Assembly: GCA_000934665.2 (NCBI GenBank)
Contig: JYFJ02003714.1
Span: 1-38,606, forward strand
Direction: 5' to 3'
From: Catajapyx aquilonaris
Lineage: Eukaryota
DNA: 38,606 bases
A model generated the notes under the pieces. It searched no databases and was not told the origin of the DNA. It saw only the letters and a list, made by a program, of their open reading frames with translations. The stretch's first letter is position 1. Each line of letters opens with the position of its first letter. The translations under genes were made by a program, and so were the position numbers. This document shows positions 1-35,274 of this stretch, one piece after another.

Positions 1-89
1 GGCCACACCGGCGGTGCGAACACAACGCAGCACCCGTCCCTCGGCCAAACTTGCCCTCCGCGAGTGGGAAAAATCGTCGTGACCGTGCG

Positions 90-563
90 CCCTTAACTAC
101 GTAGGTGGAGCCTGAGAGGCTCCAAGCACTATTTAAACGCATGTAACTTTTTCATTGAATTTTATTTTCCACTCTCCTTCCGTGACTTTGTCAGAAAAAC
201 CTTCCTAAGCATGAAAAGGAAATAACAAATTTTTTAGTCCCTATTCTTTGGTTTAAAAAAAATCGTAACGAGGAACAGGTCCCTCTAACCACTCAGGCTA
301 TCCCTATGCAGGTGAAGCCAGAGCGGCTCAAAGTTGTTGATGTAACCTTTTAATTAAAAATTTTTCCCTGTCAGAATATGCTGACTCAGCGTGTGATTTT
401 TACGTTTTCGGAAGCCTAATGATCTGAACTGCACATTCTGTATGTGAAAAGTCCAATATAATAATTTAGTTGATAAGCATAACTTTAAATATGCCGTTGG
501 AGCCTCTCAGGCTCCACCTACGTAGTTAAAGGTGTTTCGCCCACCTACGTAGTTAAGGGTTAA
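90..563. mobile_element. piggyBac-type non-autonomous element (MITE) in RCC2 intron 3; true left end may lie outside the window
   Basis: Perfect 33-bp inverted repeat 93-125 (TTAACTACGTAGGTGGAGCCTGAGAGGCTCCAA) / 497-529. An additional terminal copy at 541-563 ends ...GTAGTTAAGGG-TTAA, the CCC/GGG + TTAA terminus typical of piggyBac. No transposase ORF. Confidence 0.7.
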
Positions 564-1094
564 GGAAAGGTTTTAATTTGCTCCCACCTCCTCCTGTGGC
601 CATTTGAAGGTTGAACAAATTAATTTTAAAATCCAGACTTCTCAGTTAGGGATCTAACCATGCCAAAATCAAGTTTCACTTTTCCACCTAATAATTGAGA
701 ACATCCTTACTACAAGTTATTGTGACTTGAGGCAACAGTGGACTTGGCTAGCAAACAAAGTAGCAGATAGTTAAAATGGTTGGTGGATCTGGCTCTACAT
801 TTCTTCTACTGTACTAGATTTCACCAGACACAAGGTCTTCCAAGTGCAGCATGAAAAAGCAATAGAACCCTCTGCATGGCATGGTTTCTGGCCAAGAAAT
901 ATTCCATGGACCTTCTTGAGTTACACTACATACTCCCATTTTAGCAAGAGCATTGCTCACTACCGACATTACTTATAACATTCTATCCTTTGGTGTTGTC
1001 AGCACACAAAATTACATTTGTTTCACACTCGTTTATCCCGCTGTGCTTAAATCTCCTTGGAAAATGATTGTCATATTAATCTTGGCATACATAC

Positions 1095-3173
1095 CTGACA
1101 AGAACAAGCTGTGATTCCTGCCGCAAGATGCACCAACTATGTTAATCCCTTTCAATTCCGGAAGAGCCACTGGAACGTCCTTCCTTGTGGTGTCGCCAGT
1201 GCCAAGTTGTCCTCTCTCATTCCGACCTGCACAACACCCAAAAAGTTAGTAGTATTGGGAGCATATATCCCTCAATATTATTACCAACTCACCCCAGGTA
1301 AAAACTTGGCCATCTCTTGTAACAATGACACTATGGCTGCAAACGGATCCAGAAGCCACAAGACGCACCTTCAGCCCATTGAGTGCAGACAAAAGATGAG
1401 GTGTCCACAGATTTCTCCCAGCTCCACCTTTTACACCTTTAGGCAATTCTCTACGGCCAATCAGGTCCCAGTTTGTGCCACCGCAGATCAGGACAGTGCC
1501 GCTACCATCATCTACATTGTCCTCAACCTCCTTTGCCTGAAAGTAAAGGATTTAAGTGCAACTCTTACATTCCCTGTTTTTGAGAGACAGTCCTGCTGAG
1601 AATATATAATGGATGTGTGATTAACCCTTGTAATGTGAAGGACATAAGAATCAGATGTCACAATATGGTTTTGAAAATTTATTCCTACATGCAACTAATG
1701 TGTCAACTGCATAATGTGTGCTGTAATGTTGAGATAAGGAAGCTCTTCCTAGTTTTAAAGCAGCAGGGTGACTAACACTTTGAACTGTAACAACAAACAC
1801 GTTCCATTTCATAACAGAAACCTTCAACATCAATAGTGACCTCACTGTGCAAGCAAGGCCTGCAGTGACATCAGTGGTCTAGCCTGCCCTGACCACTCTC
1901 TCTCTCTGAGTCACTCTTGCTTCTTGGAATCTATTTGTGACTTCAGGGCGAAGCTTACTGTAATAGAAAGTAAGCCTGTTTCTACAAGTGATGACAAGTA
2001 CTACCATAATGGGTAATACAGTTTATGCAATTAAATTTTCTTGTGATAATAGCCATTTATCCTAATAGTGCAGCATTTGACTGCATTGCTATGATTCCAA
2101 AATTATGACCTTTGAATAGAAAATTTTCATTGCAAACATATACCATTTTAGTTGTTCACAAAGGACGAGAGAACAGCCAACCCTTACTCCACAGACTAAC
2201 TCAAGGGCAAGCTTTTGTCAAGTGTCCCCAGCCTTTGTGACAGTGCATCAAGATCTGCCAATGGCGAGGGCAACAGTTCATGCGGCAGCAAACTACTTCC
2301 AATCTTGACAGCCAGTAAATGGCCAACATTAATGGGATACTGCAATCCAAATATTTTGATACCCACTGGAATAAGACTGTGTCCACTTATTAAGGCCAAT
2401 TTGCTCCTGCATAATATATGATGCCCAGTTAATTGGGAGAACCCCCTTACACATGTTCCGCAAATACACTTATGTGGCCACACAATCATGGAACACAGGT
2501 AAAGAACTGATAACTTATTCAGTACAATAATGCAAAAAATTGTACTGTCGGTACCTGCTGAATTCAGGCTCGATTATGTTATTGCATTTAGTGTTTCAGC
2601 ATACTTTGCATAAAATCATACGTCCACTACTTCTGGCCCATGTCCAGTCCTGCATGTAAACGACCCTCCAATTATTAACCCCCCCCNCCCCACCGAGTCA
2701 CACATGAGCATCATCAGTTGAATTCGCGGAAACCAATCCATCACCCACCCATCCCACCACCCCCAAGCTTCTTTCTCTCTCTCTTTTTTTTCCTCACCCC
2801 CCACTCTCTCTCTCTCTCTTTCCCCGGGAATCGATTATACCAGCAGGCACTTTTTGCGGGTGGCGCTGATTCATCTGGGGGCCATCCCCAGCCGATCATC
2901 AACAATGGAGAGAATCATAATAAAACTCACCGGTGTTGATGCGACGCCGCCACTCTTCTTGGGCTCCTCCTCTTTGTTGTTGTCGTCTGCTGGTGCTGCT
3001 GCTTCTGCACCACCTTTGTCCTCTTCCTTCGCATCTTCCGCATCCTTTTGTTCCTCTTCTTCTTCTTCTTCTTCCGTCCTGGCCTGCTTCTTCTTGGGCT
3101 CCTGTTCCTCCTCCTCCTCCTGTTCCTCTCCTTCCTCCTGGTCGTCCTCCACCTTCCTCTTGGTGTCCGACAT
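1095..3173 (-). CDS. RCC2: Protein RCC2 (TD-60) homolog, RCC1-repeat protein; 5' three coding exons, 3' part outside window
   Basis: Exons 3173-2931 (acidic N-terminus MSDTKRKVEDD...), 1536-1293 (GTVLICGGTNWDLIGRRELPK...RNLWTPH...VASGSVCSHSVIVTRDGQVFTWG) and 1226-1095 (RNERGQLGTGDTTRKDVP...GASCGRNHSLFLS). All GT-AG with consistent phases 0,1,1. NWDLIGR and WGRNExGQLG are RCC2 hallmarks. Confidence 0.92.
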
Positions 3174-3720
3174 GACTTTGATTCTCTACCTGGGTCGGCC
3201 TACCTGGCTTGTGTGGTGGGACAGGGCCGGCCGGATCTCACCCCCTCTGTTCTGTTCTGTTTGGTTCCCCCCCTGCCTGCCCCCTCGCTGCTTCCGCCCC
3301 GACCTGAGAACCAACGCCGCTTCTCTTGTTCTAGATCCCCCCCACCCTCTCTCTCTGCCCGTCTGCCGATGGGAGGGGAGATGGAGGGGGTAGGGAGGTG
3401 GGCTGGGAGAGAGAAAAAAAGAGCCCCCCGCTTTACCACCCACTCTCACCCGGCGACTCACCCACCCACCCAATTTCCACCCACCCGTCCGGCAGGCAGA
3501 TCTCATTCTTTTGTGCATGAGCAAGTGCCGCACTTGTTCAGGTGAGGGTAATTGCACACACGGAAGCGAGATTTGAAGAGTGGCGTTCATTGCGATTTGG
3601 TTAATTGCGAGATTAATTGAGCGAGGGTGCGAATGCGGCCGAGATGCGATGGTGGCGACAGCGGGAGCTGGCGGAACTTATGGGCGCGGCTTTCAACTTT
3701 GAGAATTGGACGAGAATACA

Positions 3721-4003
3721 CAGTACTCCCGATTATCCGGGTGCGGATTATCCGTCCATCGCAAAAATAAATTCGAAACAACGTCAAAATGTTTCGCAAT
3801 CAAAGAAAATTTGCAGACATTTCTAGAACACAAATAGTATTGTAGTATAAAAAAATAGTACCGTATGTAGCCTACTGCATAGTTCACTTAAAACGTCTGA
3901 AATAGCTCATTTTACGGTGCCTATGTCATTTTCGGATTATTCGTGTTTTACGATTATCTGGCGACACCCGTGCATTCATTAACACGAATAATCGGGAGTA
4001 CAG
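3721..4003. mobile_element. Tc1/pogo(Tigger)-like MITE upstream of RCC2
   Basis: Imperfect TIRs CAGTACTCCCGATTATCCG (3721-3739) and CGAATAATCGGGAGTACAG (3985-4003); internal repeats of the GATTAT(C/T)CG / CGGATTAT motif. Confidence 0.6.
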
Positions 4004-4782
4004 CGCGTGTGGTTCAGAATATTGTTAGTTTCCAAGTCCCAACCCCATCTCCGGATGACTGAAAAAGTCTAAATCCAAAACGTGTTAAAATAGTGTTCAC
4101 ATCATTCTATTAGTAGTGAACTCATTACCAAATTTTGGAAACACCCCTTGGACCTGCCTTGGACAGGGAGCCTTGGACGTAATCCGAAACAAATGCCACA
4201 CTATTAGCTCTCCTTCTGCACACTACTGCCTCTCTCTTAGGAGCTTAGGAGGTAAGTACACTGTATTAGCAATGCTACTTATTAGTATTAGCCACGAGAA
4301 AGATAATCCTCTAGGTGAATTATTTTGTTATATTAGCCATGAGGAGGATTAAACCACTAGGTGAATAATTATCCTCCTCATGAATAATCATCCGCCTCAT
4401 GGATAATAAATCACCTCTCTTTAATTAGGAGCCGGGTGAATATTATTAACCATGAGGAGGATTAATCCGCTGAGTGAATTATTATTAGCCACGAGAAAAT
4501 TAATATGCCACATGAATTCATGATGACGATTAATCGGCTAGGATGCTAGGTGAATTATTATCCACGAGAAAGATTAATCTGCTAGGTGAACTCGCATCGG
4601 AAGATGCGATTCATGAGAAGGGTTAAACCACTAGAAGCTAGGTCAATTATTATTAGCCATGAGGAGGATTAATCCTCTAAGTGAATTATTATTAGCCATG
4701 ATAAAATCAATCTGCCACGTGAATTCACGAGGAGGACAAATCGGCTACGTGAATTATTATTTTTGAGGGGGATTAATCTGCT

Positions 4783-5279
4783 AGGCGGTTCCCAACCTGG
4801 GGTACGCGTACCCCCGGGGGTACGCCGCAGGATGGTCAGGGGTACGCGAAAGAAAAGGAGCAATGGCGGATTAATCAATATATTGCACCTGGCAAATATG
4901 TTCAGTCAGATTTCAAGAAATTATGTGCTTCAAAACAAGGTCAAGGATCCCACTGAACATTTCCTGTGTGCTATGTTATTCATGAAACAAGATTCCAAAT
5001 AATTATATGGAAGTGTGTGCGCATATTAACTATTAATAATAATTACATATGTTAATCTTTAAGTATCATTTGAATTTGAATGTAAAAATATATGCTTTGT
5101 ATATCTTATGGTTGCTTTGCATTATTATCCTATTACTGATTAATTTATTTCCAGTTACAGCCTATATTTTAAATAACAGCAGGTATTTATTACAAACATT
5201 CTCCATTAGGGATAAGGGGTACAATTTATGGGAATGGGCCGCCAGAGGGTACGTAAGTGAAAAAGGTTGGGAACCGCTG
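4783..5279. mobile_element. hAT (Charlie-like) MITE, copy 1
   Basis: TIRs GCGGTTCCCAACCT (4785-4798) / AGGTTGGGAACCGCTG (5264-5279); subterminal GGGGTAC repeats; near-identical to 5627-6086. Confidence 0.8.
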
Positions 5280-5626
5280 AATAGCTAGGTGAATTATTAT
5301 TATTATTCATGAGGAGGTTAATCCGCCATAGAGGAGCTAGGTGAATTCTTATTAGCCATGAGGAGGATTAATCCGCTGAGTGAATTTATTATTATTCACG
5401 AGTAAGATGAGTAAGCTGCTTGGTGAATTATTATTATTAGCCACGAGAAAAATTAAGTGCTGCATGAATATTATTCTTCATGAGAAGGATTAATCCGCTA
5501 GGTGGATTATTAGCTATGAGGAGGATTAATCAGCTAGGTGAATTATAAGCCATGAGAAAGATCTAGACTCTAGAGCTCTTGGAAAGATTAATGTGCTTAT
5601 TGTTCGCGAGTAGGATTAATCCGCTA

Positions 5627-6086
5627 GGGGTACGCGTATCCCCGGGGGTACGCCGCAGGATGGTCAGGGATACGCGAAAGAAAAGGAGCAATGGGGGATT
5701 AATCTGGCAAATATGTTCAGTCAGATTTCAAAAAATTATGTGCTTCAAAACAAGGTCAAGGATCTCACTGAACATTTCCTGTGTGCTATGTTATTCATGA
5801 AACAAGATTCCAAATATATGGAAGTGTGTGTGCATAATAACTATTAATAATAATTACATATGTTAATCTTTAAGTATCATTTGAATTTGAATGTAAAAAT
5901 ATATGCTTTGTATATCATATTGTTGCTTTGCATTATTATCATATTACTGATTAATTTATTTCCAGTTACAGCCTATATTTTAAATAACAGCAGGTATTTA
6001 TTACAAACATTCTCCATTAGGGATAAGGGGTACAATTTATGTGAATGGGCCGCCAGAGTAAGTGAAAAAAAGGTTGGGAACCGCTG
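5627..6086. mobile_element. hAT (Charlie-like) MITE, copy 2, lacking the left TIR
   Basis: Direct near-identical copy of 4799-5279, starting at GGGGTACGCG and ending AGGTTGGGAACCGCTG. Confidence 0.8.
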
Positions 6087-7508
6087 CGCCAAGTTTGCCA
6101 AGAGCTAATAGCTCTTGGCTGCGCTAGGTGAATTTATTATTAGCCACTAGTAGTGAACCCGCTGTCAAATTTTGGCAACACTGCCTCCCCACTTGGAAGT
6201 AGTAGTACAATATGCCACTACCGGTTGGCGCCTAGGCTCCACGTGTAGGCTCCCTCTCGCGCTCTAGGAACACTACTTCAGCACTTCTGCTCTCAGGGGT
6301 CAAGCACCAAGCAGTACCGTACTCTGTGACCGTACTACTATACTACAGTATACATGCTAACAAGCACACTGATGATGACCTATAACCACGCGTTCAAAGA
6401 CCACCAGGACGCTATAACAAGCACGTCTCTCATCGCCTCCATTGAAGTGTGTCCCAATCTCTGACCGCTATGGGTAATTTAGACCTACACCTATATCCTG
6501 TGGCCTGTCATTGTTGAACGGTAAAACGTAAACGTGACAACTATGGTAACTAACAAGATACACCTAAGTGATGACTGATGAGTCAACGTGTGTAGGGAAG
6601 GAGTAGGTACGTACGCATATCGAGTTCTGAATATGATATGCGGAACAATACCGGCATATTTGTTTAATAGCAATATTATAGCTTCAAGCAGGGTTTATAC
6701 GTACGTTACCATTAGGGTGAAGACAAGGGCCGTGAAAAAAAAAGCAGGATCGCTCAGGTTGTCTAGATGAGTAGACGAACCGTCATTTGGCTGCTACTAT
6801 GGTGACTGATAATTATGCAGTAACTGTAATCACTGAGGAGGCTGGCCAGACAACATTTCTTGTCATTACGAGTTATTGCAACATTACCCCCCTCCCCATG
6901 ATTTTTAATCTGTAATGGTTTGTATAATACAACGGAGAGAGTAGTTGAACCTTTTATAATTATTCATCTAATAAGTTAATCTTCGCACCCGCAATACGAA
7001 GTGACACTGAAAGCATCCTAATTGGAAAGGGGTCATCCTGTGGTATATGCAACCGCATCCTTGGCCAACTCGTAGCATAACGTTCAGGCGCACTGAACAT
7101 GATCCACAATCTGTATATTCATTCCTCATTATTCCCTGATCCGGAGGCAGACTCTGAATGAAATACCTGGGGGGCTAAGGCGAGAGAAAAATGACGTAAC
7201 AAATAAATGGCCGTGCGGGGGAGGAAGGAATAGGAGTGAATCAGAAATGAGAGATGGGGGAGGGAAGAGAGGAAGAAATGGACGCTTCCAAAAGAGGAAC
7301 CAATGAATGACGAATGAAGAGGGCCTTTTGGACCAACACAAGCAGCACCCCGGGCAGAAGGCGCCAAACAGAGTTCGTCGGACTTTGATTCAGTAGCATC
7401 AGTGTCCGCTCGTGCAATGGAATTGCTCGCCTGCTGTGTTCAATCCAGTGAGTGTCGGTGTCGCTGGGAAGAAAAGGGCAAATAGAGAAAACCAAGACGA
7501 GAAGAAGG

Positions 7509-10500
7509 ATGGCCAAATTTTTGTCCACTTTGAAAGCCATCATCACCAGGCTCATTTTTGGTATTCACGGCGCAGTGGCCATATTCAGAGTGTACACCAT
7601 CAAGGGCAACCCTTGGTACTGGTATCTGGCAGCCTCAATACTCGCGCTGTTCTTTGAAGCCATATTTACGCTCACCATCAAGCGCAGCCAGGAATGGAAG
7701 TGGTAGTGTGACTTTTAACCCATTGCTTGCTAGAAATAGTATGCTAGTGGAATATAATATTATGTGTGCTTACGTACATATGTAGTGCAGTGCAACAGTA
7801 AAGTAAATATGGAAACGACTTATTCAATACATATCACGTGAAAAATGCACCAGAAGCATTTTATTGCTCAGTGGTGCAGAACTTCCACTCCAGAAAGACC
7901 ATTGGAAAACCTTTACAAAATCATTTCAATTCGTGTATAGTTGTTCTAGTACTTTTTAGCTGTGAGACTTTAAACTTCAATGTTGACTCATGAAGGCACC
8001 CAATTCTTTTGCAAGGCTCTTTCCCATTCAGAGGAATCGATGGCCTAATGGGCCCCAACAGGACTGCAACCCTACGTTGCCTTGCAAACAAATTTTTCTT
8101 TTAACCCGCCAAACAACAATAATCTCGTGACAATACTTAGCCTGCCAATTGTGTATTAATAACTCATACACGATGAAATAACAGCACGTGCAATATCACC
8201 AGGTGGATGCCAGTAAATTAATTATTGCAATGAATTCATATTTTCAATGTGTAATTATTCGACTGTTGTATTTCTCCAGCTAATAATTACTACTCAAATA
8301 AATTTTCAAAATATCGCAAAACTCGACTGAGAAGATACAACGGCAACGCAGCACATTACAAGTTGGCGAGTCAAACTGTTAGACGGTGGGGGTTAGGTTG
8401 GGTAGTGGTGGGTGAACAAAAAGAGCCATCCTTTTGGCAGGTGGATTTCCCCCACCCACACTCCAACCTCTACTTTCTCACCCCTTGGCCATTATTCCGC
8501 GGGGATGATTCGCTTCCGTAGAATTGAGAGGAAAAGAGAACTAGGTCCGATAATGACGACTGCTCACCTCCCCACCCACCCTTTTCTTCTTCCTTTTTTC
8601 ACCCCCTGCTGCACCACCGAGAGATTGATGGCCACAACTTCATTAACTCTACCTCATCAGATTAATACTCACGATGCTATCTATGCGGGAACCATTTGCT
8701 CTTCCGGTTATATAAGTGTGCCTTCCATATCATCTTGTGGATTTTTTTTACTCATCCAGCTTTAAGTGATGGAGACATTTTCCAAGAATTCCGAAATTTT
8801 GATTGTTTTTTTCTATGCTAGGTTCTGCCCCAGCGTCTTCTTTTACCTGTGCAGCGTGGTGCCTGCGATTTGGCTAATTGAGCTGGACAAGTTTGACAGA
8901 AGATTGGCTCACAGGAAAGGACTTCAGGCTAACCTCACTGAAAACGAGTTTTTAGCGTTGGATAGCATTGGACTCGGGGTTAGTCGATGTCATAAGTCCA
9001 TAACCAAATGCCAATTTAATTGCTGCTTTTCTTAAAGGTTGGTGTGAAATTGCCAGCTGGAATTGACTCCGAGACATGGGCAACACTGATAGAACAAGTG
9101 CTCATGCTGATTCTGATCGTGGGACGATGGATGTTGCCAAAAGGTGAACTCACTAGAGACCAACTGTCGCAGCTCCTCCTGGTCTACATTGGTACTGCTG
9201 CAGACATCATTGAGTTTTTCGATTCGTTCAAGGATGAAAAGGTGACTCCACCTCAATTAATATATGAATTGGACATGGCCCAGAATATTTGATTTTACAC
9301 CACATTTAGGTGGCCTCCAATCGGATCTTGTGCATCCTAACGCTTTCCATCTGGTCCTGGAGTCTCATGCAATTCACTCTGGTGCTGACGGCCACCAAAG
9401 CACGCAAAACGCGCATATCCAGCGAGTTGCCAGCACCAGCGCCCAAACGGTTGCATCGTGCCAGGCGACGAATCAGACAAGCCACAGAAATCTGCTGCTC
9501 CTTAGACGTCTGGGGCATCCTCATCACCATCATACTTCAGGCCGGTATCAAGTCATACTCGTTTTGATTTATATTTTTTTTTTGCAATTTTACGGGTGCA
9601 ATTACCAATCCTTGCACTGCATAGAGCAGGACGCGCCTTTCCTGGTGTTCCGGATGCTCCTGATCTTCTACTACCGCATAATCTCCTACATGAACGTGTT
9701 CTTCACCTGCAAGAACACGTTGGTCATCGTGCTTCAGTTCTACCGCCTGTACGTCGTCCAGTCTGAGAAGATGAAGGAGCTGAAGGACGAAGGCAAAGAT
9801 TCGTCCAAAGGAAGACGGCCACCTCCTCAACCCCCAGGTAGTGCTGGTAGCAGAGCAGCAGCACTTAGGACTGCAGCATCAGCAGCTGTTATAGCTGCTG
9901 GAAGCAGGGATCGGTCTCGGAGTCGAGCTTCAGACCAAGGGTCAACTGGCAGCCCAGGAAGAACCAACAGTGCTGCGCGTCTCATGTCCTCAGATGAACA
10001 GCCCACACCGCCTAGGAATCTTTTCAGAGGACGAAGGGTGTGGCCTGGCAACCACTGAAGCAGTGACCTACGAGGTTACTTACGACTTTTCATAATTATT
10101 GCAGGCTCGTCGCAAGTCATTGTCCACCAGCAACTTGAGGGAACTGGTGGAGGATGTTGTGATGGTTGAGAGGCACCAGCAGCAGCAGCAAGGGCAAAGA
10201 CGACAAAGAGTGGTGGTTGCGTCGCCTGCTTTGACCTCAGGTTCTCCCAGCCCGCCTTTTGAGGACGATGCTCTTGACGATGAGCTTGTTCTGCAAGAGG
10301 AAGGCGACGAAGAAGACATTGATGACTTGGAGGAGGAGGAGGAAGACGAAGAAAACGCTGTCAATCAACGGCTGCTGGACGACTTTTCCTTAGCCGAGCT
10401 GCAGTCAGTTAGGAGGTACAGTACTGTGTACGAAATCTGCTGTGCACCGATATAGCTTTAAAATCTTCCAATGTGTACAGAGGCGGAAGAGGCGGCGGAG

Positions 10501-10904: not shown

Positions 10905-11963
10905 CAACGCCGGGCTGCCATTGGCGTCGTTTTCTTCCTATTCATTCTCATCTTTGCTCTCTGCATGCTCTTTATCTACGCCGGTATACAACCCATGGGA
11001 CTCGTCCTCCGGCATACGGTACTCACTAGGAACACCACCACTTTACCGTACGTTCAAATTCTATTTGCGTTATGCATGGTAATGAACAAATGAACTGCCC
11101 TGGCACGAGGTGATTTGTCACATCACAATAATTGGTCGCACTTTGCCTGGCACGTGTCGAAAGCGGCTGGCGTTCATTAAACTTCTAGAATAGGAGCTGC
11201 TCAAGTCAACATACGCTGTCGGTGCAACGTGGCTGAAAATTTTATTATTGAACCAGTCAACTCTTCACGCGTCAGTACTGTAAGCACAGTGTTTGCCCAC
11301 TTGGCACCTTTCAATCTTGGTAAGGCTATTTCCTGATCTGACGTGACACTGACGTGCTGGTATCCGGTGAAAGACACCTCTATCAGACAGGGGTATAGCG
11401 TGTAGCACGTGCATCGATTTCAACGATTGGAGCATGTCTTATCGGTGTCGATGTACTAATTATTATCTTCTTACTATTCCTTCTTCCAGAAAAGGAAACG
11501 TGAGCACTACGATCGAGCCAGTAGCAAACACCACCCTCATGGCCAATATGAGCAGCAGCAGCCCTTGAGCACAGCAGTCGACTGCGTCATCTCAGCGCAC
11601 AATGTTTCTTCTGCAATGCTTTTAATTTGAACTCACAGGCCACCCCTTTGTTTGTTTTCTCCCCAACGCATTTTCCAAGCCGATGGTAGCCCGCCTGACA
11701 TGAAAAGACAGCACAAAGCTTTCAGTGTATACTGTACCGTATGTTCGTTGTACAATATGTGATTATGCCACTGACCCCCCTCAGGGGGAGAAGGGTTCAT
11801 TTACCTACAGACATTAAATATGAACGAAAATTATGCCTTTTCTTATCGACAACATGTCTTTCCACATCTATATGTACCGTACACTAACTGACAGCCCCCT
11901 TTTCCCTGTATCTGATCCCTTTGTATTACACTGCATCATAATCATTTGCACCTGACGGTCGAC

Positions 11964-14352
11964 ATGTGCTTGAGAGTTATCCAACTAGCGGGCTTCCTAG
12001 TAACCGTTGAAGCCCGATTCAGCCTTCAGATGTTTCAGATGGCAGATTGTAATCCGACATTCGGATATATGATTCAGTCCTTCACGACCAGAGGCAGCTG
12101 CGTTGGTATTGTGTGTGCTGTGGATTTGCGGCCTAGATGTTGGTGTGTGGGTGACATATCGCGCTTCTTCTCCCACGCGTCTCCAGTGGTTACATTTGAC
12201 TCCAATAACATTCGAAGTGGAAGAGGGATTTGCCCAGTGCTGATTGCACCTGTGAGTGATCCTGCTGCTTTGGAAACATCAGTGTTGGTGGAGCGTGTCG
12301 GAGAGGAAGCTCGACAGTGCCAGAGAGTCGTGATGCTAACAAGTTCCGACGATGGACTGTCACACTTATTTATGAATCACGCAAGACATACCAGACTTTT
12401 GATTGCTGTTGCGAGCTCTTCATGTACCAATTCTGATGACAACCCAATATTTTGGATGTATTCTGGACAGAATGGACGACCCGTGGGGTACTGGTCACCT
12501 GACATTGGCTTGCAGATGGATGAAGATGGAGAATGGAGAGGAAGGATCGTGAAGGTGGGTTCCTTCCCTACACCGCCGTGGGTTGTGCGAGACGATGTTG
12601 ACGACATCGGTTATTCGACAGTTAACGGTGGTCTGTTTGGAAACTATCGTTGGAAAGGTCGGGATGTGACTCTTGTTCGTGAAGTGTCTGCATCTCTGGG
12701 TGCGGAAGTGGATCTTGTGGAGCCTCCCGATGGACTCCGTTGGGGTCGGCATTTGGCAAATGGCACCTGGACTGGTATCTTCGGCATGGTAAACCGCAGT
12801 GAAGTAGACATGGCTTGCGCCAATCTCTTCCTGACCTTGTTACACGGGCATGTAATGTCTCCGTCAAATTCGTATGCAAAAGACTATTATTGTTGGGCAG
12901 TCCCAATACCTAAAGAGTATGCGGCTTGGGAACAGCTTCTTCGGCCCTTTACGCCCCATTTGTGGGGTTTGATGGCTATGGCCATGGTTGTAACTGCAGT
13001 GGTTCTCTCGCGTGTAACATCTCTTTCACATGCTACTCATTTACTGGTCACATCTTTGCTGCAACAAAGCTGGAGTAATCCTCGGCGACTGAGGTGGCTG
13101 CTAACTTCATGGAGCTTCTTTGCAATGCTGATGATGACTGCATACAGAAGTTCCCTTGTCAGTCTGCTAGCTACTGGTGGTCATCCTCCACCAATTCAGA
13201 CTCTGAAGGAACTGTCTATGTCTGGATTGCAACTGCAAGGAGATTGGTTTGCACGAATGCTTCACCATGTGCCCTCCGAACCTGACCTGACCAGAATATA
13301 CGACAAAATGGTAGATGCTGAAGATGGTCCATTAGCCCTACAAGCTGTATCAGCTCGGAAAGCTGCTTTTTCAGGTAGTCTTTCATCTCTGTTGAACCAC
13401 CAACAAGAGGTGTACCGGGACAGTGGAAAGTCCTTAGTGTTCCACATTGCAAGGCAATGTGTAGCAGAATTTAACGTCGTCCTTTACACCCCTCATGGAT
13501 CATGCCTCCTGCCAAGGTGAGGACTTTTTTCTCATCTCGACACAGTTTACATAGAATTCAGAAACTCCTTGTATAGCAGGAAGTTTGTTTGTTTGTTCAG
13601 AAAATTCTAACCCACTTATAGACTATCTCGAGATTGGAGATTGTAGCTACCAGTATTACTGTACTGTGTACTATATCAGTCCACCAAGAATTGTCGTAGC
13701 AGCAGCGCACGAACTACAGTTACGAGCACTTCCGGGGGGAGAAGTCAATGGAGAAGTGCTCGTAGACTGTAGTTCGTGCGCTGCCGCTACGACAATTGGT
13801 GGACTGATAAGAGTGATAGTACATGCAAAATCGAAACTCAAGTTCTTTTCTTGGGTTTCAGGGCTGTAAAAATCAGGAGTTGATATGCACGAATTTCAAA
13901 CCCCTGGTTTTCACCACTCAGGAACCAGATAGGAAAATGACATTATTTTACTTTTGCTCGTAACACTAGCTACAATCTATACCAACATGACTGTGCAGTG
14001 ATGATATCAGTCCCGAAACAAATCCTTTCTTCCATGTGATATGCATTCTTGTCGCAGAGTGAACCAGAAAATAGGGAGATCTTTGGCTGCAGGATTGGTA
14101 CTCAAATGGCATGAGGATAGCTTAGAAGACAGAGCAGTAATAAGAAGAAGAAAGATGAGGGCTCCAGGCCGAAACCCAGGCGGGACTGGAGACAAGGCGG
14201 CGTTCAACCTGAACACCTTGAGTGGTGCTTTCCAGCTCCTCCTCTTTGGCTACTTCATTTCTTTGACTGTCCTACTACTTGAGTGCGGAAGAAAAAGATT
14301 TCAACTGCATCGACAACCTGAGTTGCCTATAGAACTCACTTTCAGACGCTGA
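11964..14352 (+). CDS. Divergent ionotropic receptor (IR, variant iGluR chemosensory family), ~615 aa
   Basis: Exons 11964-13516 and 14058-14352 (phase 2, GT-AG). S1 lobe FPTPPW...WGRHLANGTWTGIFGMVNRSEVDM, pre-M1 LLRPFTPHLW, pore LLQQS, M3 AYRSSLVSLL, S2 PIQTLKEL...AGLVLKW, and M4 LNTLSGAFQLLLFGYFISLTVLLLE. Confidence 0.88.
13674..13809. mobile_element. Palindromic 136-bp MITE/hairpin in the IR intron
   Basis: ~57-bp arms TATCAGTCCACCAA(GA)ATTGTCGTAGC...ACGAGCACTTC and GAAGTGCTCGT...ATTGGTGGACTGATA around a ~20-nt loop; TA at both ends. Confidence 0.65.
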
Positions 14353-14980: not shown

Positions 14981-17900
14981 TTAAAAGCTGACCTTCCCTC
15001 GAACCTTGAAGAAACCAAGATCATTTGTGTTATGTATTAACGAGGTTAGGCCAACGTAGTTCTCGATGATTATGGGCCTGTGTTCAACCTGGAAAGAATG
15101 ATCCGACCCACCTGTCCTGTGCAGGTCATCCAAAGCTTGGGTCAACTCAATACCAAACACATCCACATCGTACAGCCGATTTGCTTCACCACCTACAAAA
15201 CAAGCAATCATGTAAAATATTATGGCTTTACATGCCAAAAATTACCTCTGTAATTGCTCACCTTTGCACCAAAGTAATGGATGAGATGCAAAAGTGACCC
15301 AAGGAATATTCTTGCTGAATGGATTCCACCTCTGGCGGAAACTCAACCGCTCGCCTTTGTTCCACATTGCTCTCACACCATTCACATTGCGAGACCTGAC
15401 ATAAAAATATTCCCATTAATAACCATCAAAACACTGCAGCACAACAAACATGCACATAACAATGCAAAATAATACATCCCAGCATTAAAATAAAACTATT
15501 CAGTGCCACTATAAGCCATGCCAACAATGAGTATTGTTGGAAATGAAACCTGGGTTCAAAGTTGTGGTAGGTGAAGTAAGAGAGAATGGGTTCTCGGGAG
15601 AGTTCCTGCGACTGCTGCAGGTGCAACAGTTGTGTTGGGGAATTGGTTGATTGTGAGTAGGTGAGTAGGTTTGAGTGATTCTTGTCTGGGATGTCATCTG
15701 TGGTCTTGCTGGACCCAGGGGCAGCCCTGAAGCGATTCCCCTTGGTCACACTGGCCACGCTCGTCACTGTGTCTTGCACACGTCGGACTAGGCAGTCCCG
15801 TACCACTGTTGCCAACCCACCAGCTATGCCATTCAAACGCCTGGCACCATTGCCACAAAATAACACTCAGATCTCAGTAGCAATAGTATAAACTATGTAA
15901 CAACACATAAATGTGGAGGATGTGACGCTACGTACAAGAATTATTTCCTGCACAATATCTAAGAGTCTCACTATAATTATATCTATGGATTATTTAAAAT
16001 GCATGCTGACATTATCTCAAGCAACAAGCATTATCAAAATTTCTAGGATTCCAACATCCAAAACACCAATCAGCTTCCATATATTTCCATTAATTCTTCA
16101 TTGCAGTAAAATCAGTACACACTAATGTTCATATGCAAAAGAATAAAATTTTTCTTCATTATTAGAACTGTAGTGGGGCCAAATTTGTATGCAGAAATAG
16201 GTTATTGACAGTGAGGAAATCAATATTGCTGTCAAAAATGTGCAAAAATGAGAATATTTGAGAGAATTGATAGGGCAGCAGTACCCTCTCGGTGAATTAC
16301 ATAATCTCATGTAGATTTCGTCTTGAGTTCATATTATTATCAGGGGTTTACTGTAATTACACTCCACTTCCTCCTTCAACAGTGTGGACTGAATTAAATT
16401 TTACTATGTCTAATTTTTATCCTATGTTTAAATTAATTCCTATTCTTCATTCTTGGAAGTGAACGGTGACAAATGCTGACACAAGCAACAGTTAACTCTT
16501 GAAAAAAAGCCAGCTTGCCAGTTTACTACTGTAGTATGAGAATAAATTATCAACATCTCCAGTATACAACAGAGTATAAAATGCATCTTCATTAATATTA
16601 AAGACTCAATAAACACTACTATAATTATTATCATGTACCACTTACGGCACAAGAGAAGCTTCTGGATATGTGAGCTCTCCTTGAACAATTTGATCCAAGG
16701 ACTTCAGTGGAATGGTCTTTGTTTCCAAACTCCGCAGTGCAATAAAATCATACTTGACCACAAACAGGGTCACATCACCTAGTAGCACCAAACGCTCCTT
16801 CTCATGATCCCAGTGGTCGATCTCAGTCAACAGCCATGCACCCCTAATGCTTCGATCAGTGGGAGGAACCTCTTCCTCTGCAGGTGAAGTGGGAGCCAGC
16901 AAATGACTGCTTACTTCCTGAATGGCAGACTGCACCAGTTGATCACGGTAGGTGAAAAATTCCCTTGCATCATTCTCATTTGCTGGGGGCATTGGTGACT
17001 GGGCTCGTCTGGACCTGTGGAGAAGGGCACATGGCAAGTTGTATGTATGTTATTATTCACTTACTAGCAGGTTACCCGGCATTGCCCGGGTATGTTGGGA
17101 TGCTGTTAAAGGTACGGGTATATTTTAGGAAGTTTGTTTGTTTGTAAAATTTGCGTTCCGTACACTGGAACTCGATACACCTTAAAATAAGGCCAAGTTA
17201 CAATAAGCCAAAGTTTGTCACTATCTGTGATAGATTGCCTGCTTTGGTTATAGCGTAGTCAATTCTGAATGGATGATTGTGTAAAAAGAGGAATGGGGAT
17301 GGAGTTGTCCCAGGAAAAGACTGCACAGCCATGTTTTTTTCCCCAGAATATTTGATTCCATGCCCCCTCAACCCCACCTCACACCCCCACCTCGTTCCAA
17401 CTGTTTGCCCTGAAGAACTTGAGAAATGTACATGCAGATGCCTGGTGGGAAATTTTGCTTTCAACACTGCGCATTTTAATAAAAAAATCAATTTTTTTGT
17501 ATTTATTTGTGTCGGGAAGTCTAATTTCAAATCTACAAAATCCGAGAATGACCATACCATATGAAATCACGTGAGGTGGCCAATTAGCGTAACTGGCGGA
17601 TGAGTTGAATAATTTATGGCGATGGGACTTGTAAAAAAAAAGAGCCGCAAGATATATAGATGCAATGCAAATGCATTACTTTGATAGGTATTGTTGCATA
17701 AGGGCATTTCCATGGGATTGCGAACTTGGGAAAAGATGAATTATTGTTGTTGTTGCTATAGAAGTTGATGTAATTATGTTAAGTAGGGAGAAGATTCGGG
17801 AATATGCGTGTTGTGGGAGTTAGGTTCATTTTTGGAAGCTGAAACATGCGGCGTTAGATTCCCTGGAAAATGTCACCCCCGATATGCTAATTTAAGGCGG

Positions 17901-19996
17901 TGTAGGGGCCTTCCCCTGGATTTCTATAAGGGACAAACATCCAAACTCACAAACTGACAAACTAACTAAAATATAAATACAGATTCTTTATGGATTTTGA
18001 TAATGGAATGAACTGAGAGGATCCCAAGAAAACCTATTCAAAGGAGTGAGATAACCCAACAAAATTATTCCCAGACAAGAATATGTTCTGCCAACCTGGG
18101 AAACAACCCTCAGAAACGCCGAGGCGGAAAACCTGGACCTAAGCCACTATACCACCATGCCACCTAAATAGTTTCCTAAGTTAAGTATCACAAATATTAA
18201 TAATAATCATGAATAAAATAACTCTTCAGAATTTTACAGTGAACTAAAGCAGGTGAGCATCATTTAGTATGTAGTGGTTTCCTTCGTTTGGCTATATTAC
18301 AACTTTCCCAGTGATCACTTAGCTGATTATGCAATACAAATACCTTTCCATATATTGCAATAAGCTGAAAGCCCGAGATAATCCACACCATGTAATTAAA
18401 AGCTTCTGCATAATCAAGGTCATTTTGTATGCCATGCATGCTGCCTTCCCAACTCCTTTGGAGGCCTGTCAGTTAAAACTAATACATTGTGTTATAGGTT
18501 CTTCAGAGCTCACAGAAAAAAATAAATCGAAATTCGGACTTTTTATTTAGTTAAATTAGCATTTTACTATTGACAACTGCATTACAAAACACTAATTTTT
18601 AACCAGTACAGTTTCGGTTTAATCAATAACAAAAATTCAGGTGTCTTATTTGGTTTCACACATAAGAATTCATTAGAAATTGCACAATTTGTGTGTTATA
18701 GGTCAAATTAATCAGGTTTGTAGGCCTACTCTAAATAACATTTTACCACATAATTATGTATGCTGAATAAATTTTATCAAAGTCTTTAAATAATCATTGC
18801 AACATTTACCTGACTACTAATTGGTACAACAAAATGGTATAAGGGAAACCTACTCCTTGCACCACATCCCCTAAACATATTGCCATAGCAGCTTTATCAC
18901 AATGATTATTATCATCCTTTGTCATAGCAGTGATATTTTATACCAGTTCTCTGTTTCATGCAGATAGTCAATAGCCTATTCACAAATGTGACACTTTATC
19001 CCTCCAAGTGGCACATTGGCAAACTACAGCATTACCCTCCAATCAGCCTACGATCTGTTTATCATCGGAAAACAATGCAGTGCAGTATAATTATCTTCTG
19101 CAAGGCAACCATGAAAGTACATCTGTTAAAACAGTATGTGTGTATGGAATCATAAGATGCAGGTGTTGAACCAGTTGGCAACCAAATCGAACGCTGAATG
19201 GCTTCTTTATAAATATTCTGCCACTCTTACTCAGGCTAGCAGTAACGGCTGTGAAATAATCCCAAGAAAACCATGACATATAGCAGGGGTTGAATCTTCA
19301 TTGTTTTGCACTCCAAACTTTCAACAGGAGTGCAGGTTACTTTCTTGGAGTGCTTAATTTTTAATTACTGGGTTTAGCCATGTTTCACAGAAGGGCCAAA
19401 TGGGGTGCAAGCTTTGCAATCTAAGGCCCACTTTGGAGTGCAAATTGCACCTTTGCACCCGAATATTTCGACCCCTGTAAAAATCACCAGCTTATGCAAA
19501 TTCTTGTTTTAATTAATAAGCTCTCCCATTGTGCTCTTATCATAAAGCCCTGCACCTGACAGTGCATATACTGGGGCTGATTTCAGCCGCAGTGCCCCTC
19601 AAGTGAACCTGCACATGGGTATACAGACCTGCGTCGTTGCTCCTTCCCCGTTGGAGTTGAGGGCAGAGATGTAGTGGTCCCAAGAGGCGACACCGCATCC
19701 TGCCCTGCTGACACTGCCGGCCTGAGCGCCCCAGGTCCATCCTTGAACTGATGGAGCGTGACATCCACCGCTTCGGACAGGGGCAGCCTGGCGTAGTCCC
19801 CTGGAGTGCTGGGACTCCTGCTGGTCATCCCAGAGGCGTCCCCGCCCCTGCCCGTGATCTGCAGGGTGGCCCCCCTGAACAGCTCGTAGTCGTCCGTCGG
19901 GGGCGGCTCCTCCAGCGAGGCCTCCTCGTCCCCATAGGGACTCCTCGCAGGGCTGGGTGGCACCCCGAGAGTCTGTCCTCCGCCCTCCACCGACAT
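14981..19996 (-). CDS. TPRG1L: Tumor protein p63-regulated gene 1-like (TPRG1L/FAM79/mover family, hSac2 domain), ~457 aa
   Basis: Exons 19996-19629, 17014-16646, 15840-15550, 15395-15262, 15192-14981 (1374 nt, in frame). Motifs GAWLLTEIDHWDHEKERLVLL...VKYDFI, RWNPFSKNIPWVTFASHP and the C-terminal IENYVGLTSLIHN...GFFKVRGKVSF are characteristic. Confidence 0.9.
17064..17983 (-). mobile_element. Non-autonomous Helitron, long copy (~920 bp), in TPRG1L intron 1
   Basis: On the minus strand: A|TC 5' start, GTTT/GTCA microsatellite-like tract, subterminal hairpin ACCCGGGCAATGCCGGGT, and 3' CTAG|T. The 5' ~190 bp and 3' ~33 bp match 37923-38236. Confidence 0.85.
18030..18161 (-). mobile_element. 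Possible tRNA-derived SINE head (degenerate)
   Basis: Minus strand starts GGCATGGTGGTATAGTGG (Pol III A-box-like), followed ~35 nt later by GGTTGTTTCCC (degenerate B-box). No intact cloverleaf; 3' boundary approximate. Confidence 0.4.
19284..19477. mobile_element. Short hAT-like MITE in TPRG1L intron 1
   Basis: TIRs CAGGGGTTGAA / TTCGACCCCTG; internal repeated TGCACTCC/GGAGTGCA motifs. No clear 8-bp TSD. Confidence 0.5.
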
Positions 19997-20179: not shown

Positions 20180-23100
20180 ATGGCCGACACTGCGAGTTCT
20201 GCGTCGCCCGTCTCCTCCGCTCCCGCTGGCGCCGGTACACTCCCAGACGTCGCCAAGATGAAGGTGGGTTTGCCTCCCGGACACAACCCGCGTTCTCCGG
20301 AGAAAGGAAACGGTCTATAAGTGCATTCCATGTTCACACCTACGGGCTTTTGCACACTGCCGCTTCCTTTCCGCTTAAGTCGCCTGTTGGCATTCCTGCA
20401 TTCTCACTGGACTTATTCTTCTGGCTGTGTTTGGAATACTCTTGGCAGCCATACTTTTCGCCGGAACAGAACGACGGACAAACTAGTGTGAACCGAGCTT
20501 GCATTGGCTTACTGTGTCAAATTACCTGGTTGAAGTACTGAGAGGGGGTGAGACAACAGCTGCAGGCAGTTTAGATGGGCCGGAATTTAATTTTTTGCAT
20601 TTCCAATAACTTGCAGGTGGCTGACTTGAAGCGGGAGCTCAAGTCTCGTGGCCTCAGCGCGATCGGAAACAAGGGGGAGCTGACCGACCGCCTCCAGGAA
20701 GCTATTCAGATGGAGCGATTGGCTCTCGGGGAGGACTCTGCCCTGGAGGACCCGACGTTGGATCCCACGGATTCTTCTCTGGCAGATGCGGACCTGCTGG
20801 ATGAGGATGAGGTCTTGGCTGATGAGTCTGAGGTGTTTGGGGAGGAAGTGTCGTCCACTGGGGGTAAGGACGAAGAGGACGAAGCACTGTTGGCCAGCCC
20901 CACCAAGACAAGCCCACCGGCGCCGCTGCCAGCCAAGAAGATTATTCTCGACCGAACTACCCCTGTGGTGGTACCTACTCCATCTTCTGAGGCACCAGCG
21001 GCATCCACGCAGTCTGACGCAGAGAAGAAAGTCGTCAAACTCACTGAACTTACCGCTGAGGAGGTAAGCCTATTGCGACAAATCTACCATTACTTGCGGT
21101 GTAGACATATGTTCATGTTGTAAAGGTTGCAATTTATTGGTCTTGGTCAAGTTTGAAGGCCTGCATTTCATTGTTGCTGATTATTACCAAACAATGACAG
21201 TAACATACAAGTCTTCAAACCTTTTCGAAATCCTAGCTTTTACTGTTTTAGTAGCAAGCACCATTTGCACTCAGAATCTTAGTAGTCCAAGCCAAATGTG
21301 TCTCAGATTACTTATCTTACTTGCTAACATTCTTTCTGATTATGCATAACGATTCACAATACATAATGAGAGACTTCTTCATTTGAGATTATAAAACAGG
21401 CCTTGAATAATATTGTAGTGTTGGTGCTTATTAGTAAGTTTTTTGAAATACAGGGTGGTTGGTAAATGGTGTACAAGCTTCTTGTAATGAGATTCCTTGT
21501 GAAAAACCTGTATATAGCAGTGAAGGTCTGACTGCTCTATGATGTGTGGTTATCGCTCGGGAGGCCTCCGAAAGTTCGAGCCAAATCATGACGTCATGTC
21601 CACCCGCGAACTTCAAACGCTACTGTATGCGGTATGTTGCCATGCCACCGTCCCCCACATTCCCACCCTTTACTCTTGAACGCTATAAACACGCGGGAAT
21701 GTAGGGGATGGCAGCATGGCAATGCCTGGTAACACACCGCATACAGTAGCGTTACGACAGTGCTTGCATTTCGCAGGTGGACGAGACGTCATGATTTGGC
21801 TCCAACTTTCTGAGGCCTCGTGAGCGATAACCACACATTGTATGGCACTCGGACCTTCACTTCCATATACAGAATGTCCCAGTCTACAAACGGGTTACGT
21901 TCCTGAAAACATCCATTCATCGGATTTGTACGTAACTCGGATCTCTGAGGAACAGGGCATATATGCGAAGTAAAGATGCTGCTTCAACAAACCGCTTACG
22001 TCAAGTATGTTCGTTCACATGTGCAGAAGAATGTAGTTTCCCAGTTATTTATTTATTACACAGTATTTATGTCGAACTTGGTGTCTGTTAACATATACAG
22101 AAGTGATTGAAAGTGGTGGGATAATTAAATATTATCCTTCTGGGGAGCCTTGGCAGCCCATTCGTAAGTACGGATCGCTGTAAGTCAGACCGTTCGTAAA
22201 CCGGGGACCTCCTGCTGGTTTTTCATAAGGAATCTCGTCATGTGAAGCTAGTATGCCATTTACCGATCACTCTGTATTTGTTAGCCCTAGTGCTTTTGTT
22301 AAAATGCTGAGTACACATGTTACGTGTCGAGCCATTTAAAAAAATAATTATACACTTGCCCCTTGAATAAGTAAATTGAAGACCTGAATTGCAAAAGTCC
22401 CAAGTCCAGGAATGAAAACTTTTCAGGAGAGCCAAAAAATCATGCAACCTCCCTCCTTCTGATCTTCTCTATCTTGGCAAACAGTGAATCGCAAGGTAAA
22501 AAACTGTGCCCACTTGTTGGAAAATAGTGGTGTACAGTACTAAACCTGCCTTCCTGCATGGAAAAACATCACATGTCCATGGACGTGGAACTCTATTCCA
22601 TGCCACAAGAACCAAGGATAGCCAAAATTCTGTAGTTCCTTGCGGTCTTGGGATGATTTTGCATTCGGGCCAGATGAGTCCTTCGCTGTAGAACAAATTG
22701 GCGACAAAAAAGCAAATTGACAGAAAAATGGACTTGGGACCTTTTGCAATTCAGGTCTTCAATTGCATGTAAATTTTATCTTCAATAGCGTCTGAAGCTT
22801 CGTGAATCCAAGTTTGGTGCAACTGGCACAGCTGTGGATGGAGCAGAAAAGAAGGCAGCACGCGCCCAGCGGTTTGGAATCACTGGAGACTCTGCCACCT
22901 CTGCAGCCACCGGAACTACTGGTGGAACTGTGACAAAAGACCTGGAGCTTCTTAAGAAGAGAGCCACCCGGTTTGGAGTCACCCTCTCCAAAGATATCTC
23001 CTCGGTACGTACATGAACTGCAGTGGATGAAATGTTGGAGAGATTAATCTTTTTGCAGGATGGCAAAAACTTCATTTGAACACCAATAATTCCTCAACTC

Positions 23101-23790: not shown

Positions 23791-26484
23791 TTACGAAGGT
23801 GGTTTGCCTCCATCCGGAGTCTTCCTTTGCCCTCGGTCTTGTCTCTTATCCTTCTCGGGCTTGCCTCGCAGGAGTGGCTTTGGCCTTCTGATGTGGTCCA
23901 CGCTGGCCTGCCATCGTAAGCGCTTTGGCCTTCCTGTCATTGTCGCCTCCACCTCTTGGATGCCATTTCTACTTCCCAAAGGCAGTTCGACTGAAAATAT
24001 ATTCATAGCACAGGATGTACCCTTCACGTCAGTAATTGTGTTACCAAATCAGGTCCTACGCTGAATTAGTCAAGTCACTCTGTTGGAATGCCTCGACTTC
24101 CCAGCCCGTAGAAGGGTATAATTTATTAACTGTGGCCCAAACAGACTGTAGGTCAGCCCAAAATGCAGACTTTGAATGCATTTACAACTGCTGAAGCAGA
24201 GATTTGATCACTTTCTTTTTTTTCACGTGTCATTGAAACTGAACGTAATTTATGAGCTAGCTGTACAAGTAAATTACAGTGCTGCATTTTACTTTTCAGT
24301 TCCGTCCCTGGTTCCGTAACATAAGTCAATGCACACTTTCAGTGGTATCCTACCTGTTTCACGCCTTGTTGAATGAGTGAAGGAGGGGGTGTGCATAGGT
24401 GTGTCCACAGGTGTGTGTACAGGTGTCTGAGAGGGTGAGGTATGCACAGAGGCCTGCACTCCTACAACACGCGTGGCTAGCATGGCCCCACCAGAAACGG
24501 ATCGCCGCAGGGCTGAAGGAAGAAACCGGTTGAAACGTCGGAAGGATCGAGATGATTCAGTCAACGAATCTGAAAAATAGGACGATTGTATTAATGATCT
24601 GTTGGAAAACCTCATCATTATTGCACATACACATTTCTCTCACATGCTGTGATCTACATCTGTGCCATTGCAGTGGCTTACAACCACTTGGGTGAATCAA
24701 CCATTGTAATGAGTATGAGTGCGTTTTTTCTTGCAAGGCAGTGATGCAATACGCTCCTGGTCAGACACTTTCTCAATGTCTTATTATGACCAAGGGATGC
24801 ATTTTCATCAGTGAGAGCTATGCAGAGTCAAAGACATTTTTTTGGTGTGTTAACTAAGTTAGCATGCTACACTTCATTTGGTGTTATGTGTGTTATTTGC
24901 CATGCCGATCTTCAAAGTGGACAGTATAGTGTACCTTTCCTAATGGGACACACATTCGTGGCCTCTTTGGAACCGCCTCGTCGCTTATGCCTGTAAACAT
25001 GTTGTTTATGCAAGGGAATTTATTTCAAATGCCACTTAGTGCATGTGCGTGTACATGTGTGTACCTGTCTCCTGCAGGGTATCATCTGGTGTGTTTCCCT
25101 GCTGCCAGACTGAGCTCCGCCTGCTAGCTGGCAACCCTACTGAAATTCACACATTAAGAAGTTCAGTTATGATAGTTTTCATCTCAACTAACCTCCATAA
25201 AGAGCTCCTTTCGGTCGACTGCAGATGATTTCCAAGTATCCCTGTCTGAATGATGGGCTTCTAAATGCGTAGATGATAGGGTTGCATGCAGAATTTAGGT
25301 AGCCAAACCAGTATGACTGAAATAATTATGCAGGTGAATTGTAATGTGATTAACAAAGGAGTCAAAAACACTCCCCCATATTACATATTGAGAGGTTAAC
25401 GACTGTCATTTTCATGTATACTCACAATAGGGTTGAGGATAGCCGGCACTGCTCCTTCCCCTTTTGCCATGAGTGTGCATGAGTATACAAGGTATGTGGC
25501 CCAGCAGGTGACAAAGCAGACCAAGACAATGACCAATGTTTCAGCAATTCTCTTTTGCTGAACAACAGTCACAGACATCTTCAGATCAAGATTGGATGTC
25601 TCTCTCATTCTGTTGAAGCAATTAGTCAAACATATCCATCATTGGTACATGTGGTTGCAGGTGCAATCTCAGGATCCACAGCTTATATTCCAGTACACAT
25701 ACCTGGACATATGCTGCCGCACCTCTTGGAAAATGCGGTAGTAGCAGAAGCACATAACCACAAATGGTATGGCCACATTGACAAGGGTGTTGACCAGTGA
25801 GTGTGTTTGCTGCAGGGTCGTGTTAGGGATGGCTGGTCCACACTGGCTGGCTCCATACTTGTACACTGGCATGAAAGTTTACATTCATTAATATTGTACG
25901 CACATTTGGACCATATATTTTACTGAATACACACCTGTCCGTGTCCATCCGTAGATTGGGGCTAGATTGTATATAGCACTCCATATCCAGGCAGCAGCAA
26001 TCATTAGGAGGATCCTCGCTGGAGTCATGGCCCTGCTGAAAGGCCTGGTGATGGACACATACTTATGCACGCTGATCAGCATGAGTGTGTGCGTGGAGGT
26101 GTGTAACCCAAGACCAATGGTGAACCCATTGAACATGCAGAGAGCACGAGAGAAGGGCCACCACCGACCCCTGGAGAATGTGGCAATGGCCAAGGGCATG
26201 TCCAGCACAGCCACCATGATGTCTGCCACAGCCAGGTTGGCCAGGAACAAGTTGGTGCGCGTCCTCATCCCCCTGTGACGGGCTATTGTCACCAGAACCA
26301 TGACATTGCCCAGGATGGCCACTGTCATTCCCACTCCCAGAAGAATGCACATTGGGTACGTGAGAAATGGGCTGTTGTAGAATACCTTCCCATGGCTCTC
26401 ATCCCAGGTGTCTTCTTCTGGATCAGATTCATTCAGAGACGTTCCCAGCAGCGGGCTGGATGATGTCGATTGTGACATGTCCAT
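23791..26484 (-). CDS. Orphan rhodopsin-like (class A) GPCR, ~503 aa
   Basis: Exons 26484-25935, 25865-25703, 25609-25426, 25316-25193, 25139-25065, 24569-24354, 23990-23791 (1512 nt, in frame). TM1 GN, TM2 NLAVAD, C3.25, TM4 W, ECL2 C, TM5 P, TM7 NSACNPIIY and helix 8 FRQGY are present. The last three (tail) exons are less certain. Confidence 0.88.
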
Positions 26485-35200: not shown

Positions 35201-35274
35201 CTTCGAGGTGTAGTTACTTGGAAGCTTGGTGAGACTAGCTGGACCTGGTGCTGAGAAAGGTCCTCCCTGGTCAT
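32206..35274 (-). CDS. Neprilysin / endothelin-converting enzyme-like M13 metallopeptidase, ~865 aa, type II membrane anchor
   Basis: Exons 35274-35028, 34928-34828, 34763-34565, 34494-34237, 34156-32774, 32689-32383, 32308-32206 (2598 nt, in frame). N-terminal [43 protein letters not shown] (HExxH), [38 protein letters not shown]. Confidence 0.93.

Follow-up and report, generated by a model that had tools for sequence, protein, structure and literature searches.

The window analysed, a 38,606-nt stretch of Catajapyx aquilonaris DNA (contig JYFJ02003714.1), contains on its minus strand the 5′ portion of an RCC2 gene. Exon 2 matches human RCC2 (PDB 5gwn) at E 1.7e-18, and spider and gastropod RCC2 are the closest named relatives among the clusters examined; a protein homolog search at E 1e-10 gave no match, although the representative-sequence search did. 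A spliced RNA contig from run X5 sets intron 1 at 1537–2930 and intron 2 at 1227–1292, exon 3 ends at 1095, and no exon following exon 3 was found within the window. These boundaries place the first of the two segments considered here (A, 720–944) in intron 3 and the second (B, 1935–2151) in intron 1, in agreement with a preliminary description of this DNA. The spliced RNA contigs of run X5 leave A and B uncovered, which has no bearing on their expression either way. No RNA inside RCC2 introns is reported in the literature searched, the coverage of which stops short of the snoRNA host tables in supplements. The features discussed below are as follows.

2931–3326, minus strand: RCC2 exon 1 (5′ UTR and acidic N-terminus, ATG near 3175), from the spliced contig
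1293–1536, minus strand: RCC2 exon 2, from the spliced contig and the PDB 5gwn match
1095–1226, minus strand: RCC2 exon 3, from the spliced contig and translation
1932–2162, minus strand: segment B, candidate copy (core 1935–2151), with a predicted 7-bp terminal stem 2162–2156/1940–1934; folding z −1.75 to −2.5
2067–2089, minus strand: shared UGCAG/CUGCA helix in B, pair probability 0.97
2039–2044, minus strand: ANANNA of B that resembles an H box, with a predicted stem 14 nt away
1935–1947, minus strand: 3′ shared motif of B, with ACA at 1938–1936, the ACA 14 nt from stem 1975–1969/1959–1953
717–960, minus strand: segment A, candidate copy (core 720–944), which reaches the shared GUGARCAA word at 960–953 and folds no better than shuffles
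936–944, minus strand: 5′ shared 9-mer of A, complementary to 772–779; counterparts in B at 2143–2151 and 2008–2012
843–880, minus strand: shared UGCAG/CUGCA helix and 10-nt identical word in A; counterpart in B at 2067–2089
720–732, minus strand: 3′ shared motif of A, which holds ACA at 723–721 and is 12/13 identical to 1935–1947

The two segments had been singled out as sharing seven motifs in the same order and over a similar span, and all seven do lie at the claimed coordinates, with starts in A/B of 720/1935 (TTGTGACTT), 757/1967 (AAAGTA(A)GC), 775/2008 (AATGG), 843/2067 (AGTGCAGCAT), 872/2081 (CTGCAT), 909/2107 (GACCTT) and 936/2143 (CCATTTTAG) and spans of 225 nt (A) and 217 nt (B). Three further common words lie on the same chain, and a GUGARCAA word stands directly 5′ of both segments on the host strand. 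The host-sense 3′ ends both carry ACA, also as described, at the same place in each 3′ motif (723–721 and 1938–1936). Outside these words of 5–13 nt, nothing aligns between A and B.

Sequence islands of this kind might be what is left of a repeat. If A and B were very old, decayed copies of one miniature DNA transposon or local duplication, the 7-bp inverted repeat that brackets B and the stems of B would be leftovers of it; B is partly palindromic (its own covariance model matches its own plus strand at E 0.87), and the window does hold several miniature elements. Against such an origin, one sample's three DNA runs show flat, single-copy depth over 536–2681, and no additional contig turns up at 85% likeness; A and B are single-copy at 85% identity or more. 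No third copy was found in the 38.6 kb, where the motif profile scores at best 9.0 bits elsewhere, against 63, and no target-site duplication was seen by eye around A or B. Neutral decay would also leave even similarity and not islands with unalignable spacers, and a decayed repeat is an unlikely source of the two segments. A possible third copy at 4080–4360, hinted at by two short inverted matches, did not align.

Repeats are common elsewhere in the window. Intron 3 also contains a high-copy miniature inverted-repeat element at 90–563, with a 36-nt terminal inverted repeat (90–125/497–532) and a second right end at 541–559; its summed contig depth is about 600–1800 times that of a single copy, and copies are found in the RNA run too. 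Upstream of RCC2, an array of 14 copies of a 32–36 nt repeat (4270–6180) is broken by two elements of 460–490 nt with 14-nt inverted ends (about 4785–5277 and 5627–6084), which are 96–98% identical. Further dispersed or inverted repeats (about 17,600–18,100 and 37,750–38,300; 35,500–37,100; 21,340–22,360) dominate the tails of the control distributions used below. The only allelic bubble seen in 536–2681 lies at 1862–1926, where one run has five differences in 65 nt (three substitutions and two insertions) around a CT microsatellite; A, B and the rest of 536–2681 are free of allelic differences. Four long open frames bear a resemblance, judged by eye, to known proteins: that at 11,916–13,517 to an ionotropic receptor, that at 20,575–21,120 to a SAP-domain protein, that at 25,891–26,511 to a GPCR and that at 32,241–35,295 to a neprilysin.

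The most likely account of A and B is that they are ordinary intron sequence, and that the ordered words are a somewhat lucky chance chain drawn from many window pairs. Nothing would then be processed from either intron and no mechanism would be needed; the modest hairpin of B would be of the kind that AT-rich intron DNA often yields. The excess of the match over chance varies with the statistic used. When A and B are treated as a single pair, 15 of 1000 shuffles equal or exceed their score in a lenient local alignment, in which four other stretches of the window beat B as partner of A; an exact-word chain as good as theirs occurs in 3 of 9916 random window pairs (two of the three are real repeats); and a local pair-HMM is matched by 305/6000 and by 85–163/3000 controls. 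The end-to-end pair-HMM score is reached by 68/20,000, and against the rest of the window A finds an equal partner in 1 of 4000 cases and B in 5 of 4000, so that equal partners do exist elsewhere.

The fair test is the family-wise one, in which the sense-strand RCC2 introns are block-shuffled and the search over all of the gene's introns is counted. By sequence alone, 96 of 1336 such shuffles reach the A/B score; with longer words the counts are 115/4963, 629/8535, 144/6377 and 255/5211 (2.3%, 7.4%, 2.3% and 4.9%), and with mismatches allowed they are 98/3335, 352/2253 and 431/5799 (2.9%, 15.6% and 7.4%), a range of 2–16% of trials that speaks for a chance chain. So does a different pair in the same introns (about 603–843 and 2111–2350), which scores 35.5 on the 5-mer chain against 33.4 for A/B. 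On the other side, each of the seven stricter statistics ranks A/B first among the pairs in these introns, and the rate falls to 13/1336 (1%) when at least 14 bp of motif-to-motif pairing in nested helices are also demanded, a criterion chosen after the data were seen. This joint rate is suggestive for one gene and is not so for a scan of many genes; a match at the 1–16% level that emerges from a scan of many genes and windows would more often be chance than homology. The A/B similarity is marginal, slightly above chance.

The main competitor of the chance chain takes A and B for RNAs. Many H/ACA RNAs are released from host introns by debranching and exonuclease trimming, with dyskerin, Nop10, Nhp2 and Gar1 protecting the ends, and long intron-encoded examples include SNORA53, SNORA73/U17 and SNORA74/U19. 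A and B may be anciently duplicated H/ACA-type RNAs encoded on the host strand, B the more intact and A rearranged or decaying; we regard this as a tentative possibility that falls somewhat short of probable. B would consist of a long 5′ hairpin, an H box at 2044, a 3′ hairpin and the ACA at 1938. RCC2 splicing and debranching would be followed by trimming to about 220–230 nt, with an end 3 nt after the ACA, the ends would be protected by the same four proteins, and the conserved words would serve in protein binding or processing and not as pseudouridylation pockets of the ordinary kind. The roughly 1% joint rate, the single-copy depth and the corresponding place of ACA in the two 3′ motifs all agree with this proposal.

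Its predicted structures are a mixed body of evidence. The helices named in the preliminary description are complementary as claimed, and the 12-bp plus-strand stem 721–732/914–925 that it placed in A has a mean pair probability of 0.9; this stem has no counterpart in B. The claim that both segments can fold is borne out weakly for B (z −1.75 for the whole and −2.47 for 2021–2137) and not for A, with z +1.33 for the minus strand and −1.16 for the plus strand; whole-segment folds on the plus strand are not significant for either (z −1.16 for A and −0.98 for B). The shared words can be arranged in a nested host-strand model with a terminal GUGA/UCAC pairing, AAUGG/CCAUU, a bulged UGCAG/CUGCA and a weak ACUU/AAGU. 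In this model the partner of AAGGUC differs between the copies, being GACCUU in A, while in B the helix is GGUCAU/AUGGCU, and one G-C/C-G swap occurs between the copies, in the weak 5-bp ACUU/AAGU helix. These nested helices, the exchanged partners and the swap are features that a chance chain accounts for poorly. On the host strand both copies have the AAGGUC domain as their local minimum-energy fold (A only when 830–916 is folded alone, at z +0.07), and the GGUCAU/AUGGCU helix of B, which needs G-U pairs, forms on the host strand only; both points fit an H/ACA-type RNA, and the second weakly favours the host strand on the predicted fold.

The energies are less kind to a common fold. In B the core of the nested model lies no more than 1.2 kcal/mol above the minimum, and z for the 5′ hairpin is −1.9 to −2.5. 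In A the shared fold has −42.9 kcal/mol against a minimum of −57.5 (a cost of 14.6) and a shuffle mean of −61.2, with pair probabilities near 0; these energies of the shared fold refer to its P1–P3 core only, since constraining all helices returned the unconstrained fold. The 3′ 74 nt of A are less structured than shuffles (z +1.7), and RNAalifold on a MAFFT alignment of A and B finds a folding energy of only −2.7 kcal/mol. When the window or 564–1900 is searched with a covariance model of B, A is not among the matches at E up to 10, and a model of A overlaps part of B only, at E 1.9 and rank 7 of 31, beneath five chance matches. The results for A, the alignment and the cross-models are as expected of a chance chain and tell against H/ACA paralogs, although models built from a single sequence miss relatives with large insertions. 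Within A, 791–869 (minus strand) forms a 29-bp imperfect hairpin with pair probabilities of 0.7–0.98, in which the shared 10-mer is paired differently; this hairpin is absent from B.

The boxes of B come closest to an H/ACA RNA. The usual distance from box to stem is 14–15 nt (PMC8763049), and in B the ANANNA at 2044 and the ACA at 1938 are each 14 nt from a stem, a predicted geometry that appears H/ACA-like and that counts for the H/ACA proposal and against chance. The preliminary description had been unable to place a canonical H box; an ANANNA does occur at the matching internal place in both segments (A 812/807, B 2044/2041), but the motif is common, at 4 per ~270-nt segment. The A matches are 812–807 and 807–802, and the B matches overlap a predicted 9-bp stem. 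Before the ACA, B has a 3′ hairpin (a 7–8 bp stem at 13–14 nt), whereas A lacks both a 3′ hairpin and any local stem 13–16 nt before its ACA, so hairpin and pocket, present in B and not in A, fail as a feature of the pair. The putative 3′ guide bases also differ between A and B, and the two strands of the putative 5′ pocket of B pair with each other. Antisense and pocket searches of 11 rRNA loci of other eukaryotes (the animal-like 28S among them being partial) and of a 45-nt U2 piece found no guide target common to A and B, a result that weighs against H/ACA RNAs and toward chance. B 1944–1957 has a putative 14-nt complement to U1 stem-loop II (as in human U1), beside CUGA; it is absent from A. 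A hairpin followed by ACA 3′ of B (1926–1848, minus strand) was rejected as a candidate for an additional H/ACA domain: its z is −0.5, A has no counterpart, and the five allelic differences fall inside it.

Compared with animal intronic H/ACA RNAs, then, A and B are alike in being intronic, candidates in host sense, two in one housekeeping gene and about 220 nt long with ACA near the 3′ end, and in B stems lie 14 nt from an H-like box and from the ACA; they differ in having no Rfam match, in that no common target was found, in the missing 3′ hairpin and pocket of A, and in being known from sequence alone. They also resemble the cis-duplicated intronic snoRNA paralogs of single hosts treated in PMC2653536, with one copy per intron on the same strand, and depart from them in aligning only in words of 5–13 nt and in the failure of the cross covariance models.

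A relationship to a known large RNA is very improbable. A and/or B would in that case be a divergent intronic RNase P RNA, U17/snR30, telomerase RNA, or C/D or composite scaRNA, and their length is near that of U17. Across the whole window no Rfam family reaches its gathering score; among the 17 weak matches at E up to 10 in 1–4000 none lies over A or B, and a scan of 20 of the 30 RCC2 loci described below gave no match. The lack of a family match is equally what chance predicts. The earlier statement that RNase P/MRP, U17 and telomerase-template motifs are missing agrees with motif scans. Neither segment has a C box (RUGAUGA) on the host strand, and the D-box sequence CUGA is found at 1946 in B only, where A has CUCA. 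The m1 and m2 motifs of U17 flank its 3′ hairpin; the m2 word was found in A only (887, in the 5′ half), and m1 is absent from both introns. CR-I/CR-V motifs of RNase P/MRP were not found within A or B, and the only host-strand match of at least 6 nt to the TTAGG telomerase template, at 651/650, lies downstream of the ACA of A, with none in intron 1, so that no template stands inside or upstream of either segment. Intronic RNase P RNA was tested because, according to PMC4287351, RNase P RNA genes of insects and crustaceans are intronic, a single gene sometimes hosting two copies in separate introns, with Rcc1 as the host in mosquitoes. That precedent matches A and B in intronic position, in the possibility of two copies in different introns and in an RCC1-family host, but the host here is RCC2 and not Rcc1, and A and B have neither an RNase P match in Rfam nor the conserved-region motifs. 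The known-RNA reading is already largely refuted.

Homologs were sought in other RCC2 genes. Among 143 pattern matches in metagenome contigs, 30 proved to be RCC2 loci, whose best protein segments are 40–76% identical, and none contains a homolog of A or B by BLAST, nhmmer, a seven-motif profile or either covariance model. The best score of the seven-motif profile in these loci is 14.5 bits, on the antisense strand (A and B score 63 by construction). A cross-group comparison of the introns of 22 of the 30 loci with those of the window (92 kb; the other 8 loci were duplicate or intron-poor) found a simple repeat only, and the intron that matches intron 3 is present, whole or in part, in 7 loci. 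Viral contigs gave no RCC2 locus and no match to a three-motif pattern. These results count for a chance origin and against a structured-RNA reading, but as weak evidence, since the loci are all distant, many of their introns are incomplete, and snoRNAs can move from host to host. A 260-nt element doubled in the RCC2 introns of another animal (L006/L007) was rejected as a relative, being unrelated to A/B and bounded by terminal inverted repeats; in L006 the two copies of this transposon (6051–6314 and 7713–7970) are 72% identical and lie in neighbouring RCC2 introns. Eukaryotic 18S and U2 pieces were seen inside viral contigs (L031–L034), and at least 47 prokaryote genome records (L035–L081) carry eukaryotic rDNA contigs, apparently as contamination.

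The preliminary description took A and B for a paralogous structured RNA and not a decaying repeat. In its favour are the 1% chance rate with pairing, the single copies and the geometry of B; the cross-models, the fold of A and the search for homologs go against it. The words are real, and an RNA family is not demonstrated. Chance is the most likely single reading, its truth and its falsehood being about equally probable in our judgement, and this is not a disproof of the feature. These weightings are matters of judgement that set the per-gene chance rate of about 1% against a low prior for paralogs this diverged. It is also conceivable, though quite improbable, that A and B represent an undescribed class of intron-encoded RNA of ~230 nt, of which they would be ancient paralogs, and in which mutually pairing conserved words surround freely replaceable insertions. 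Such an RNA would end in ACA and, in the manner of U17/snR30, would act in a processing or chaperone RNP with no normal pseudouridylation pocket.

If the match is due to chance, it shows no more than that the introns of a single gene can give rise, at the percent level, to ordered words of 5–13 nt spread over 220 nt. If A and B are ordinary orphan H/ACA paralogs, the gain would be one more invertebrate snoRNA, so far uncatalogued, and a new host gene, a minor advance. As a non-guide RNA that ends in ACA, they would represent a new animal RNP class, and the two natural variants would mark its essential bases.
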